Source: Vulcanimicrobiales bacterium
Lineage (GTDB): Bacteria > Vulcanimicrobiota > Vulcanimicrobiia > Vulcanimicrobiales > Vulcanimicrobiaceae
Length of the DNA stretch: 64,000 nucleotides
Reading direction: 5' to 3'
Assembly: GCA_038231455.1 (NCBI GenBank)
Contig: JBBRLI010000002.1
Location: 160,001-224,000 of the forward strand
The notes under the pieces were generated by a model. The model saw only the letters and a program-made list of their open reading frames with translations, ran no database searches and was not told the origin of the DNA. The translations under genes were made by a program, and so were the position numbers. Position 1 is the first letter of the stretch. Each line of letters begins with the position of its first letter. Below, piece after piece: positions 2,539 to 8,304 of this stretch.

Positions 2539-3661
2539 AAGAGCGGCGCTGTACGTCCATCTGCCGTTCTGCCCGTATATCTGCCCGTACTGCGATTTCG
2601 CGAAGTGGGCGTTCGCACCCGAGGCGGCTGCCTCGTATCTGCTCGCTCTGGAGGCGGAGATCGAACGTGCCCCGCTTATCGCGGCCACAACGCTTTTCTT
2701 TGGCGGCGGGACGCCCAATACGTACGAACCGCACGAGATCGCCACGATCATCGCGCGTCTGCGCGCGCGCTTCGACTTGCGCGATGATGCGGAAATATCG
2801 GTAGAAATCAATCCGGACCTCGCGCTTTGCGAGCGGCTGGCCGGTTTGCGTGAGGCGGGGGTCAACCGGCTCTCGATCGGCGTGCAGTCCTTCGATGCTC
2901 GCGAACTCAAGACGCTCGGACGCCGACATTCTGCAAACGATGTTGCCGTCGTCCTCGAGCGTGCGCGCGCCGCGGGTTTTGCGAATATTTCGATCGATTT
3001 GATGTTTGGCGTTCCCGGTCAGACCGATCTCACATGGGCTGCTTCGCTCGATCGCGCTTTTGCACTGGGCATCACGCACGTCTCGACCTATGGATTGACG
3101 ATCGAAGAAGGCACGCCGTACGCGCGTTGGTACGAACGCGAACCCGGCGCGTTCTTTGACGACGAGCGCGAAGCGACGCTGTATCAGATCGCGATCGACC
3201 GAGCGGCCGCAGCGGGTTTCGAGCACTACGAGATTAGCAACTTCGCGCAGCCCGGTTACCGCTGCGCGCATAACGCGAACTACTGGCGCAACGGGAGCTA
3301 TCTTGGTCTCGGCGTCGGCGCGGCGTCGTATCGCGCGGGCGTGCGTTCCACGAACACGCGGGACCTTACCGAGTATGTCGCGGCGGCACGTTCCGGCGTG
3401 CCGATCCCCGGCGAATCCGAGGAACTCACGGGCGACGATCGCATCGGCGAGGCGACGATGCTTGCTTTGCGGACGCTGGAGGGGGTCAACGTGCGCGACT
3501 TCAGCGAACGGTATGGCGTGGATTTCCTCAAGCGCTACGCCCGGGTCATCGCGGACCTCGACGAAGCCGGACTCCTCGCCGTGAGCGGCGAGTCCGTCCG
3601 GCTCACGCCGCGCGGCCGATTTCTTGCAAACGACGTTTGTGGCGCGTTCCTCAACACGTAG
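2507..3661 (+). CDS. hemW: Radical SAM heme chaperone HemW (HemN-like)
   Basis: LYVHLPFC-x3-[36 protein letters not shown] and YLGLGVGA motifs. Exact start uncertain. Confidence 0.9.
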
Positions 3662-3680
3662 CGGCGGTTCTGCCACGACC

Positions 3681-4739
3681 GTGCTTCGGCTCATCTTTGC
3701 GGCCGTGTTCGGCACGACCGGATTTTTGCTCGGCCGCGAGGCCTACGCGCACCTGATTTCGATTCACCTCGCAAGTGAAGCGTGGCAAATCGCGGCCAAC
3801 GTCGTCGCGCCGGTCGTCGGCGCGGTCTTGGGCGTGTTCGTTGCCCCCTTCGCGCAGTCGCTCTTCGAGGTCGAACTCGTCTCCGTCGAACGTTCGATCG
3901 ATCGGCTTGCGCCGGGCGAACTCGTCGGCGGCGCGGTCGGTCTGATCGCCGGCCTCATCATCGCGTTCTTGATCAAGAGCGTGCTCTTTGAATTCATCAA
4001 CATCGCCGGTCCAGCCGGCGGTTATATCGCGATCCTGCTCTACATCATCGTGAGCGTGTTCGCGGCGTACCTCGGAGCGCGCGTCGGCGCAAAGCAGCGC
4101 GTGAGCCTGCGCGGTTTTTCATCGACCGTTCCGGCGGCAGCGCCCGGGAGCGTTCCCAAAGTCATCGACACATCGGTCATCATCGACGGGCGGATCCTCG
4201 AGATCGTGTCCACGGGATTTCTTGAAGGCCCGCTCCTCTTGCCGCGCTTCGTGCTGCGCGAACTGCAGCTCATCGCCGATTCCACCGATGCGATGAAACG
4301 TACCCGCGGTCGCCGCGGACTCGACGTGCTCACGAAATTGCAAGCACTGATGCCCCTCGAGATCGTCGAACGCGATTACGACGAGATCTCGGCGGTCGAT
4401 GCGAAGCTCGTCAAGCTCGCCCAAGAACGGGACGGCAAGCTCGTCACGAACGACTTCAACCTCAATCGCGTCGCGCACGTCGAAGGCGTGAGCGTGCTGA
4501 ACATCAACGAACTCGCGAATGCTGTAAAGCCCGTGCTGTTGCCCGGAGAAGAACTCCGTGTGGCGATCATCCGCGAAGGGAAAGAACCCAATCAAGGAGT
4601 TGGATATTTGGACGACGGCACGATGATCGTGGTCGAACACGGTCGCAAACTTATCGGTGAGACGGTCGACGTGGCCGTGACGAGCGCACTGCAGACGATG
4701 GCGGGCCGCATGATTTTTGCGCGTCCGAAGCGACCATGA
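3681..4739 (+). CDS. Membrane PIN/TRAM-domain protein (YacL-like)
   Basis: N-terminal TM helices, PIN motif [30 protein letters not shown], and TRAM motif [14 protein letters not shown]. Directly upstream of ispD as in Firmicutes. GTG 3681 taken as start. Confidence 0.92.
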
Positions 4740-5692
4740 TCTGGGGTGCGGTGATCGTCGCGGCCGGGCGCGGTACGCGCTTCGGCCGGCCAAAACAGCT
4801 CGCCTTACTTGGCGATCGTCCGATGCTCGCCTATTCGATCGAGACGTTCGCGGCGATGCCGGAGATTTGCGAACTCGTGATTGTAACCGAATCCGAGTAC
4901 ATCGAGGACGTGCAGGCGCTCGTCCTTGGGCGGGTCGGCTCGCTGCCGTGTAGCGTCGTTGCCGGCGGCCCCGAGCGGCAGGACAGCGTGCGGCTCGGGC
5001 TCGACGCACTCGGCGAGGGATGCGTTGGCGTGCTCGTGCATGACGGTGCGCGTCCGCTCGTGCGACCTGCCGATATCCGCGCCGGCATGCGGGTCGTGCG
5101 CACCGGTATCGCCTCGCTCCTCGTCACGCCCGTCGTCGATACGATCAAAGTGCTGGGCGAACACAATCACGTCGCGCGTACGCTCGACCGCGCGACGCTC
5201 GTCGCCGCGCAGACGCCGCAGTTTGCGATGACGCGCGACATGCGCCGTGCACACGCCGATGCCTACCGTAACGGCGCCGTTCTTACCGATGATACGGCGC
5301 TGCTCGAACGCGCCGGCTGCGATGTGATCGCCGTCGTCGGTTCGCCTGAGAATTTCAAAGTGACGCATCCGGAGGATGTGTTGCGCGCTGAGGCGATCCT
5401 CGCCGGGCGCAGTCCGACGATCGTCGATGAAGAAGAAGTCTTTGTCGTCGAATCCTACATCCCGGAACGAGCGATCGATGACGTTGCCGAAGAGATCGAA
5501 CGTCGCGAAGGACGCGTCGATGAGATCAATCGCGATCTGCCGGATGCGGCGATGATTCGCGCGTATATCGGCGCGTCCAATTTGCGCGGATTCGGTACGC
5601 AGCTCACCGTGCTCGGCGGCCCAGGTGCCATGTTTACGGCGCACCACGCCCACTACGCGCCGCGAGCGCCGGCTGACCGAACGCATTCGTGA
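4736..5692 (+). CDS. ispD: 2-C-methyl-D-erythritol 4-phosphate cytidylyltransferase with extra C-terminal domain
   Basis: [36 protein letters not shown] and NFKVTHPED motifs. About 90 extra residues follow the catalytic domain. Confidence 0.95.
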
Positions 5693-6165
5693 GGGTCGGT
5701 CATGGATTCGATGCGCACCGACTCGTCATCGGTCGTCCGTTCATCTTGGGTGGCGTGCACGTGCCCGCCGATGTCGGTCCACTCGGACATAGCGATGCCG
5801 ACGTACTCGCGCACGCGATCTGCGATGCGCTTCTCGGTGCGGCCGCGCTCGGCGATCTCGGCGCGCACTTCCCCGATACCGACGAACGCTGGCGCGGCGC
5901 CGATTCGCTTGCGCTCATGGCCGAGTGCGTAGTCATGCTCCGTCGGGCGGGTTACGGAATTGCGAATGTCGATGCGACGATCGTCGTGCAGACGCCCAAA
6001 CTCGCACCGCATCTTCCGGCTATGCGCGAGCGTCTCGCCGCGACGCTCGCGGTTCCGCTCGGCCACATCAGCGTCAAAGCGAAGACCAGCGAAGGCCTGG
6101 GCTATACCGGCGACGGGAGCGGGATTGCCGCCTACGCCGTGGCGCTGATCGAACCGCTCGTTTAG
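5689..6165 (+). CDS. ispF: 2-C-methyl-D-erythritol 2,4-cyclodiphosphate synthase
   Basis: [34 protein letters not shown] and KAKTSEGLG motifs. GTGA overlap with ispD. Confidence 0.97.
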   Translation: MRVGHGFDAHRLVIGRPFILGGVHVPADVGPLGHSDADVLAHAICDALLGAAALGDLGAHFPDTDERWRGADSLALMAECVVMLRRAGYGIANVDATIVVQTPKLAPHLPAMRERLAATLAVPLGHISVKAKTSEGLGYTGDGSGIAAYAVALIEPLV

Positions 6166-6231
6166 CAGGAGCGGTGCGTTGTGGCGCCGTTCCCAGAAAC
6201 GGTGAAGAATCGCGCCGTAGGCTCGGTGCAT

Positions 6232-6912
6232 ATGGAAAGCGAGCCGACCCGTGTTCTCGTCGTCGATGACGAGCGCCCGATCCGAGAACTGCTTGAAATC
6301 GGCCTCGGCCAGGCGGGTTTTGACGTGCGCACGGCCGCCGATGGAACCTTGGGCCTCGCCGCCGTGCGCGAATGGGAGCCCGATGCCATCGTGTTGGATG
6401 TGATGATGCCGCGGATCGACGGCATCACGCTCTTACCCATGCTCCGCAAGATCACCGAAGCGCCCATCTTGATGCTCAGCGCGAAAGGCGACGTCGTTGA
6501 CAAAGTCGAGGGACTGGCCCACGGTGCTGACGACTATCTCGCCAAACCTTTCGAGATTCCCGAGCTGATCGCGCGCATCCAAAGCGCGCTCCGTCGGCCG
6601 ACGCTGGCGAAACGCAGCACGCTCTCGTTCAGCGATCTCACGGTCTCGCTGGACGACCACATCGTCACGCGGGCCGGTAAACGCATCGACCTTTCGGCAC
6701 GCGAATTCGATCTGCTCGCGGCGCTGTTGAAATCGCCAAACCGCGTTTTCAGTCGCGCGCAACTGCTCGATCTCGTGTGGGGAATCGACCGTGACGTAAC
6801 GCTCGGAACCGTCGAAACGTATATCTGTTATCTCCGCGCGAAAGTTGACCGGGGTCAAGCGCCGCTCATTCATACGATACGCGGCGTCGGCTACTCGCTG
6901 CGCGAGGGCTAA
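6232..6912 (+). CDS. OmpR/PhoB-family response regulator (MprA-like)
   Basis: VLVVDDE, LDVMMP, GADDYLAKPF and winged-helix HTIRGVGY motifs. ATG at 6232 lies 8 nt after a TAGGCT -10-like hexamer. Confidence 0.93.
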   Translation: MESEPTRVLVVDDERPIRELLEIGLGQAGFDVRTAADGTLGLAAVREWEPDAIVLDVMMPRIDGITLLPMLRKITEAPILMLSAKGDVVDKVEGLAHGADDYLAKPFEIPELIARIQSALRRPTLAKRSTLSFSDLTVSLDDHIVTRAGKRIDLSAREFDLLAALLKSPNRVFSRAQLLDLVWGIDRDVTLGTVETYICYLRAKVDRGQAPLIHTIRGVGYSLREG

Positions 6913-8304
6913 TTGTTTCGCGCCCTCGAGCAGCGGGTGACGTTTGCAATTGTCATCTCGGTGCTCGCGCTGTGCGCGATGCTGGGAGCCGTTGTCACGT
7001 GGGCAGCATGCACGATTATCGGCACGGGCTACATTCAAGCGCAGCATAACGCCGCAATGGAACTACCCGCAATCGCCGAGCGTGAAATCGCAAGCGCCGG
7101 CTCGCTCGAACGCGCGCGGCTTGCGATCGAACGGCATTTTGCGGGGACCGACATCGTCGTTCGCTTGCGGCCCGCGCGGCAACGTGGCATCGGAGGCGGC
7201 CCGCAGCCAAGCGATCTTCGTCACGGCGTGATGCCAGTGGGCGGACAAGCGCCGCGTGAATCGTTCGATGCGGCGCCATATCCCGGCGCCGTCCTCGTGA
7301 TGAGTCTCTCCGGTCTCCATCCGATGCGCGTCCCGATTGCAGGCGATCTGGCATTTATCATTCCGGACGTTTCTCGGCTCAACCGCGCTGCACTCGCGTT
7401 TTTCTCCGCGCTCGGCGCGATCGTCGCGGTCATCCTCATCGCTGGGGCGATTGCTGCGCGACTGCTCGCGCGCGCCGCAATTCGACCCCTCATCGATGTC
7501 ACGCTCGGATTACGCCGGCTCGCGCAAGGCGAGTTTACCCGGCATTGGATCGACACGAACGAGCGTAGTCCCCTCGGCGAACTCGCCGACGCCTATAACG
7601 GCGCCGTGGATCAGGTGACGGCGGCGATCGAAGAACGTCTGGAGACCGAATCCGAGATGCGCGCGTTCATTGCCGATGCCGGTCATGAACTGCGCACGCC
7701 GCTCACGGTCCTCACCGGCTACATCGACGTGCTGCAGAAAGGCGCGGCGCAGAACGCGCCGCTTGCCGAGCGCATCTACACCTCGATGCGGACCGAGAGT
7801 CGGCGCATGCGCTCGCTCATCGATAAACTCATTTTGCTCGCGCGGCTGGAGCGGCTCGATACGCACGCTGCTACACGCGTGGAACTCGAGCCCTTCGTCA
7901 AACGCGTGATCGACGCCGTCGCGCCGCACGGCTCGAACGTCGCGTTCCAAGCACACGCACACGACCTCGTCGTTTCGATCGACGATGCCGAATTGCACGC
8001 GGCATTTGCGAACCTGATCGAAAACGCGCTCAAATATGCACCGGGTTCTGCGGTCACCGTTGATTTACGCGCCGTCGGCAGCGAAGCGGAAATCGCGGTC
8101 AAGGACGCGGGTCCGGGCATGAGCGCGGCGGCACTCACGCACGCGTTCGACCGATTCTATCGCGGGGAGAACGTCGCGGCACCCGGATCCGGCCTTGGGC
8201 TATCGATTGCCAAGCGCGCGGTCGAACGCGCGCATGGGACGCTGAGGCTGGAAAGCCCGGCCGGAGACGGCGTGCGAGCGACGATCCGATTGCCTCGCGC
8301 CTGA
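6913..8304 (+). CDS. HAMP-domain sensor histidine kinase
   Basis: Two TM segments, HAMP, H-box FIADAGHELRTPL, N-box NLIENALKY, and G boxes DAGPG and GSGLGLSI. Confidence 0.94.
   Translation: MFRALEQRVTFAIVISVLALCAMLGAVVTWAACTIIGTGYIQAQHNAAMELPAIAEREIASAGSLERARLAIERHFAGTDIVVRLRPARQRGIGGGPQPSDLRHGVMPVGGQAPRESFDAAPYPGAVLVMSLSGLHPMRVPIAGDLAFIIPDVSRLNRAALAFFSALGAIVAVILIAGAIAARLLARAAIRPLIDVTLGLRRLAQGEFTRHWIDTNERSPLGELADAYNGAVDQVTAAIEERLETESEMRAFIADAGHELRTPLTVLTGYIDVLQKGAAQNAPLAERIYTSMRTESRRMRSLIDKLILLARLERLDTHAATRVELEPFVKRVIDAVAPHGSNVAFQAHAHDLVVSIDDAELHAAFANLIENALKYAPGSAVTVDLRAVGSEAEIAVKDAGPGMSAAALTHAFDRFYRGENVAAPGSGLGLSIAKRAVERAHGTLRLESPAGDGVRATIRLPRA

Follow-up and report, generated by a model that had tools for sequence, protein, structure and literature searches.

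A module homologous to elongation factor G domain V at the C-terminus of an IspD enzyme from a little-studied bacterial phylum

In the stretch of DNA analysed here (64,000 nucleotides, referred to below as the window), the reading frame of ispD runs on for about 90 amino acids past the normal end of the enzyme, in an extension that the initial annotation likened to domain V of elongation factor G (EF-G) and took to be an undescribed addition to an enzyme of the MEP pathway. Such an extension raises the questions of where it came from, how widely it is shared, and what a piece resembling a translation factor would be doing on a metabolic enzyme, if it is doing anything at all. The frame itself proved to be a single uninterrupted one (positions 4736-5692, forward strand; 318 amino acids plus stop), containing the protein strings quoted in that annotation and recognised by Pfam as IspD and EFG_C.

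Gene layout and catalytic domain

The N-terminal part of the protein is the catalytic domain of an MEP cytidylyltransferase (residues 5-222, positions 4748-5401), matched by PF01128 at 178.8 bits (E = 1.8e-52; cut-off 27) and by the NCBIfam model TIGR00453 at 201.2 bits (cut-off 181.3). A linker follows (residues 223-230, positions 5402-5425) in which model confidence is lower (pLDDT of 71 for residues 221-230), and residue 231, encoded at position 5426 at the onset of a DEEEV stretch, opens the acidic EF-G domain V-like module, delimited by PF00679, the AlphaFold2 model and Foldseek (residues 231-310, positions 5426-5665). The protein closes with a short C-terminal ending placed by alignment (residues 311-318, positions 5666-5689; pLDDT of 58 in the last block), which overlaps the start of ispF, varies in length and is missing from relatives of about 312 amino acids. 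Many relatives of 317-323 amino acids carry a short conserved D/E-R-x-H ending past the module (alignment columns 316-335), for which either protein function or a nucleotide constraint from the overlapping ispF start could be the cause.

As the initial annotation had it, ispF (MEcPP synthase) is a separate gene, occupying positions 5689-6165 on the forward strand with a GTG start, overlapping the ispD stop codon by 4 nt and matching the YgbB profile (PF02542, E = 4.6e-64) over positions 1-155 of 155. The EF-G-like module is inserted exactly between ispD and ispF, at the C-terminus of IspD. Upstream, at positions 3624-4739 of the same strand, lies the gene for a membrane-anchored PIN-TRAM protein (PIN, 2.1e-8; TRAM, 1.4e-7), with a hydrophobic N-terminal half and a stop codon that overlaps the ispD start; the order PIN-TRAM, ispD, ispF resembles the yacL-ispD-ispF arrangement of Firmicutes. 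At nine loci of relatives, and at the window's own locus, a possible PIN-TRAM-IspD fusion was considered and dismissed: the upstream frames, where long, are arginine-rich off-frame translations of the upstream gene in G+C-rich DNA. On the 3' side of ispF, on the same strand, genes for a response regulator (243 amino acids) and a histidine kinase (463 amino acids) occupy positions 6181-8304 of the window (+), their frames abutting at 6912/6913.

Across 92 sequences, G11, G13, R15, K20, the HDGARP motif (H102-P107), D135, T136 and K138 (DT.K), R152 and K208 are invariant. By comparison with E. coli IspD we take these to be the glycine-rich CTP loop with its Arg and Lys, the HD.ARP and DT.K motifs, the arm arginine and the C-terminal lysine. 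A scan of the source genome with the whole protein returned a single IspD match, the fusion itself. As the catalytic motifs are invariant and the genome holds no IspD match other than this one, the fusion can be regarded as the organism's working IspD and, judging by its motifs, appears to be a catalytically intact, single-copy enzyme encoded beside ispF. Two other identities were ruled out. The bifunctional IspDF model NF006899 scores 130.3 bits against a cut-off of 417, with only positions 8-222 of 387 (the IspD half) being matched. Nor is the protein a translational GTPase of the EF-G type (EF-G, LepA, BipA, RF3, Tet(M)), the G domain and domains II-IV being absent and the N-terminal 222 residues being IspD; Pfam found no GTP_EFTU, EFG_III or EFG_IV match in it at E up to 10.

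Relationship of the module to EF-G domain V

Pfam places an EFG_C domain (PF00679) over residues 235-309 (profile positions 6-80 of 89). The score is 30.0 bits with the whole protein as query and 31.8 bits for the 95-residue tail by itself, the gathering cut-off being 27.9. This pass is borderline, as a precomputed PF00679 match exists in only 7 of the 120 homologues listed, and three of the five IspD-fusion fragments scanned with Pfam score under the cut-off. We also built a profile from eight tails of related genomes (95 positions) and searched it against all PDB sequences. With E limited to 1, it matched 64 distinct sequences, the best being 4fn5_A (E = 9.9e-8; profile positions 11-88 of 95, 78 columns), and the best 60 of the 64 are all EF-G-type translational GTPases or Snu114/U5-116K homologues.

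Structure prediction leads to the same domain. The AlphaFold2 model of the tail (pLDDT of 85.3, with core blocks at 94-97) has a beta-alpha-beta-beta-alpha-beta topology, and a Foldseek search of the PDB with this model ranks EF-G domain V first (E = 9e-8, probability 1.00), superposing the two with a TMq of 0.80-0.81 and an rmsd of 1.0-1.1 Å over 81-82 columns. The best 50 chains are all domain V of EF-G, EF2, Snu114 or BipA (TMq 0.73-0.81). The resemblance of pattern and spacing noticed in the initial annotation is in this way borne out by family, profile and fold.

Pairwise comparison gives a different result: a BLASTP search with the tail finds no match in the EF-G of the organism itself (705 amino acids; E = 5.4), whereas the tail profile aligns to residues 609-688 of that EF-G at 32.4 bits. 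Because of this empty pairwise search, and of the few homologues with a precomputed PF00679 match, the likeness must be said to be visible at the level of profile and fold rather than of pairs of sequences, and the homology with EF-G domain V is an old one. The tail is nonetheless a true EFG_C homologue, descended from EF-G domain V and fused to IspD.

Distribution, gain and loss of the module

Scanning 151 genomes of the source organism's family with the whole fusion protein, we found an IspD match in 145 of them and none in the other 6. The module is present in 54 of the 145, from 27 genera; the match extends beyond query residue 300 in 53 of these, and in the remaining one (G235) the module lies in another frame. 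In 89 genomes IspD stops at residues 221-234, without the module, and two matches are too incomplete for a verdict. Of the 151 genomes, eleven are unpublished (7 among the 54 bearers, 4 among the 89 short forms), and with these removed the picture is the same (47 bearers versus 85 short). In the 83 loci that we read, from 79 distinct genomes, the length past the last IspD helix is bimodal (84-100 or 1-16 amino acids, with 30 at the one frameshifted locus), and no remnant of the module was detected in any frame in 24 short and 5 outgroup loci (best E = 3.1). The ispF gene begins within -4 to +40 nt downstream of ispD in 80 of the 83 loci, and adjoins ispD in short-form loci too.

At the frameshifted locus (L049; G235:C3:495511-498691) the ispD frame shifts at the linker; as the module is intact in the other frame and 76% identical to the tail of its sister, this is probably an indel error of the assembly, or else a very recent frameshift. 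A different genome, an unpublished one, holds on another contig a second and partial copy of the fusion (G022:C208:4683-5054, query residues 189-312), for which differences between strains or duplication of a fragment may be responsible.

The best 120 of 3119 database homologues of the IspD are all 292-329 amino acids long, with a query coverage of 95-100%. Their named sources belong to Eremiobacterota (Candidatus Velthaea, Elarobacter, Lustribacter, Baltobacteraceae and Vulcanimicrobium alpinum), so that by the names given to these homologues the module-bearing family is Baltobacteraceae; the public annotations of the fusion proteins read plainly IspD. The cultured V. alpinum carries the fusion as WPS_14190 (317 amino acids); the description of this organism has a corrigendum (PMC10582173).

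The tail profile, run against 201 genomes of the phylum, gives strong matches (73.8-153.6 bits) in 29, all of the source organism's family. EF-G genes account for the next matches (46.8 bits or less), and an IspD-type match occurs in 0 of the 87 phylum genomes from other families; the IspDs of five genomes from the two nearest families are short. Among 1.84 billion representative proteins the same profile has 200 matches at E up to 1e-3 and only 9 at E up to 1e-10. One of these nine (P0003) is the full-length fusion itself, seven represent fragments or frameshifted versions of IspD fusions (by Pfam for five, by reading the sequence for three), and the ninth (P0129) is an EF-G fragment, as is P0133, the only lower-ranked match scanned that has EFG_C. 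P0129, at 55.7 bits the best EF-G of this library, comes from a cluster in which the full-length protein shares 49% identity with the organism's own EF-G. No free-standing copy of the module and no other fusion partner was found among the matches at E up to 1e-10, and an ESM Atlas search returned EF-G fragment clusters only.

The source genome also carries, outside the window, adjacent pufL/pufM-type reaction-centre genes (PF00124, 224.8 and 208.2 bits; contig C8:68186-69842), from which its organism is probably an anoxygenic phototroph. PF00124 is found in 28 of the 151 family genomes (10 with the fusion, 15 with the short form and 3 without an IspD match). Phototrophy thus shows no association with the module, the share of fusions among these genomes being close to the overall rate of 54 in 145.

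How the two forms of IspD are related was examined on a catalytic-domain tree, inferred by maximum likelihood from 49 fusion, 25 short and 5 outgroup sequences (79 rows in all, of which L003, L006 and L037 come from unpublished genomes). Fusion and short forms interleave on this tree. The minimum is 9 changes of presence or absence (8 with the frameshifted locus scored as a fusion), and well-supported branches alone demand at least 4 of them. Constraining the module bearers to be monophyletic lowers the log-likelihood by 72.7 units, and the AU test rejects this topology (p-AU 0.021). Both forms occur within two genera (g4 and g47); in g47, comparison of the short form with its two congeners shows a clean gap of about 276 nt, in which the module and nothing else is missing. 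On this phylogeny the module has been gained, lost or swapped out several times within the family. Since all outgroup IspDs are short, we infer a single gain near the base of the family, with repeated loss or replacement by recombination afterwards, although the polarity of these changes is itself deduced from the outgroup.

Where the module is present it is under purifying selection as strong as that on the catalytic domain, dN/dS in 11 close pairs being 0.04-0.39 for the module and 0.06-0.28 for the catalytic part. The initial annotation had considered that orthologues ending near residue 225 would mark the extension as a read-through or assembly artefact. Such orthologues do exist, in the form of the 89 short IspDs, and the conclusion drawn from them does not hold, since 54 of 145 genomes conserve the module under purifying selection; the relatives ending near residue 225 are one side of a natural presence/absence polymorphism. 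Given its repeated loss, any benefit of the module would have to be conditional.

Possible roles of the module and known systems

Nine residues of the tail do not vary across 92 sequences (E239, R257, D262, R266, L268, P269, R275, G285 and T301), H303 and H306 are near-invariant, and an alternating pattern of conserved polar residues runs along the four strands. Some of the conserved residues are common to EF-G (E in strand 1, R after helix A, T and an aromatic residue in strand 4) and may mark the fold rather than a new functional site. The module is acidic in all 49 relatives compared (median net charge -7, range -11 to -4; median pI 4.79), and at three positions after helix B the organism's own EF-G has a basic residue where the consensus of the fusion profile is non-basic. 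The catalytic domains are in turn less acidic in module bearers (median pI 6.54 versus 5.76), and arginine is more frequent in them than in short IspDs at R119 (42/50 versus 10/24), at R148 in the dimer arm (40/50 versus 6/24), at R167 (36/50 versus 2/24) and at R170 (37/50 versus 8/24), although this enrichment, once relatedness is allowed for, comes down to 3 independent pairs on supported branches and hence has no statistical power. The full-length AlphaFold2 model has a pLDDT of 91.0 (87-97 in eight blocks for residues 231-310) and a pTM of 0.86, a value higher than we would expect for a randomly placed 90-residue domain, which suggests a defined arrangement of the two domains. A complex prediction for the catalytic domain (1-226) and the tail (229-318) as separate chains, run without controls, scored 0.00 and speaks neither for nor against docking.

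The reading that we prefer, tentatively and at a little less than an even chance, is that the module is a cis-acting accessory unit, structural or allosteric, which docks on the IspD core. It would no longer serve ribosome binding, but would pack in cis onto the catalytic core, its acidic surface facing the arginines R148 of the dimer arm, R167 and R170 of helix 166-179, and R119, and would tune the stability or activity of IspD while being dispensable for catalysis. Action in cis is suggested by the module being found only fused to IspD, through a linker of about 8 residues, and dispensability by the 89 of 145 relatives that lack it (with ispF still adjacent in the short loci read), by the indel of about 276 nt between congeners and by the rejection of a single clade of bearers. 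For docking itself, the evidence to be named is the predicted pTM and the charge patterns.

Other roles can be imagined, the nearest being that of a protein-protein adaptor recruiting, for instance, IspF or IspE into an IspD-IspF(-IspE) assembly, as in bifunctional IspDF. The position of the module, exactly between ispD and a translationally coupled ispF, would suit such a role, and the alternating conserved polar residues of its strands would fit an exposed sheet face (a geometry deduced from the pattern). However, genomes that lack the module have ispF just as close to ispD, and a comparison of 45 fusion with 23 short loci gave only 5 IspF columns differing by at least 0.4, with no charge pattern; no column is convincingly linked to the trait, as co-adaptation of IspF with the module would require, and we regard recruitment of this kind as unlikely. 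Somewhat less likely again is a small-molecule sensor which, in the manner of ACT-type domains, would bind a pathway intermediate or nucleotide and feedback-regulate the IspD step. The ferredoxin-like beta-alpha-beta-beta-alpha-beta fold would lend itself to this, and the invariant polar residues E239, R257, D262, R266, R275 and T301 could form a pocket with H303 and H306, but part of this residue set is inherited from EF-G, the sole Pfam match of the tail at E up to 10 is EFG_C (with no ACT or other ligand-binding family), and IspD is not known to us as a step at which the MEP pathway is commonly controlled. Were the module regulatory all the same, the pathway would, in this little-studied phylum, be controlled at IspD.

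That the module keeps its former job, tethering IspD to the factor-binding site of the ribosome or to an RNA, is suggested by its homology to, and close superposition on, a domain that in EF-G touches the large ribosomal subunit. If it still recognised that region, or another translation component, IspD would be coupled to translation, physically or through regulation, and isoprenoid synthesis would be tied directly to the ribosome. This contact, raised in the initial annotation, now looks very improbable, since the module is acidic and the three basic EF-G positions, in a stretch after helix B that contacts rRNA, are non-basic here; the fusion also lacks the remaining EF-G domains on which ribosome binding depends. 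Hardly credible, finally, is an origin of the tail by read-through or mis-assembly, or its being a decaying, functionless remnant. The short relatives and the one genome with the module out of frame could be quoted in its favour, but the same architecture recurs across 27 genera and in full length in the best 120 of 3119 homologues, the dN/dS values are low, the fold is confidently predicted, and the frameshifted copy is otherwise intact.

The preferred role of the module, as a unit acting in cis on IspD, lends itself to comparison of full-length with truncated enzyme, which would be straightforward because natural controls exist (sister species, and even congeners, differing only by the presence of the module) and because a cultured bearer, V. 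alpinum, is available.

The combination of IspD with EFG_C is a new domain architecture, in keeping with the initial annotation: a full-text literature search returned no description of it. Among known systems, EF-G domain V shares with the module its fold and topology, and sequence homology at the profile level along the whole domain, but belongs to a translational GTPase, whereas the module comes without a G domain and domains II-IV, is more acidic than domain V of the organism's own EF-G, and has motifs of its own, an RDLP hairpin and LRGFG, conserved across the fusions. Bifunctional IspDF has in common with the fusion an IspD with an extra C-terminal domain and the ispD-ispF gene context, but the domain added there is IspF, while here it is another and ispF stands apart. 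The canonical single-domain IspD, as found in the short relatives within the family, has the same catalytic motifs, a catalytic domain 44-62% identical in most cases and the same PIN-TRAM, ispD, ispF context as in the window, but ends 1-16 residues past the last IspD helix, with no remnant of the module.

To our knowledge, EF-G domain V is known almost only within translational GTPases. An EF-G-domain-V-like module does occur in non-GTPase proteins as the C-terminal domain of YigZ/IMPACT, and IspH-S1 fusions join another MEP enzyme to a domain of translation proteins; both are precedents, with partners and families that differ and with enzymes or proteins other than IspD. Beside them, the IspD fusion offers a clean case of new use, in which a core metabolic enzyme has co-opted a translation-factor domain and selection has maintained it.
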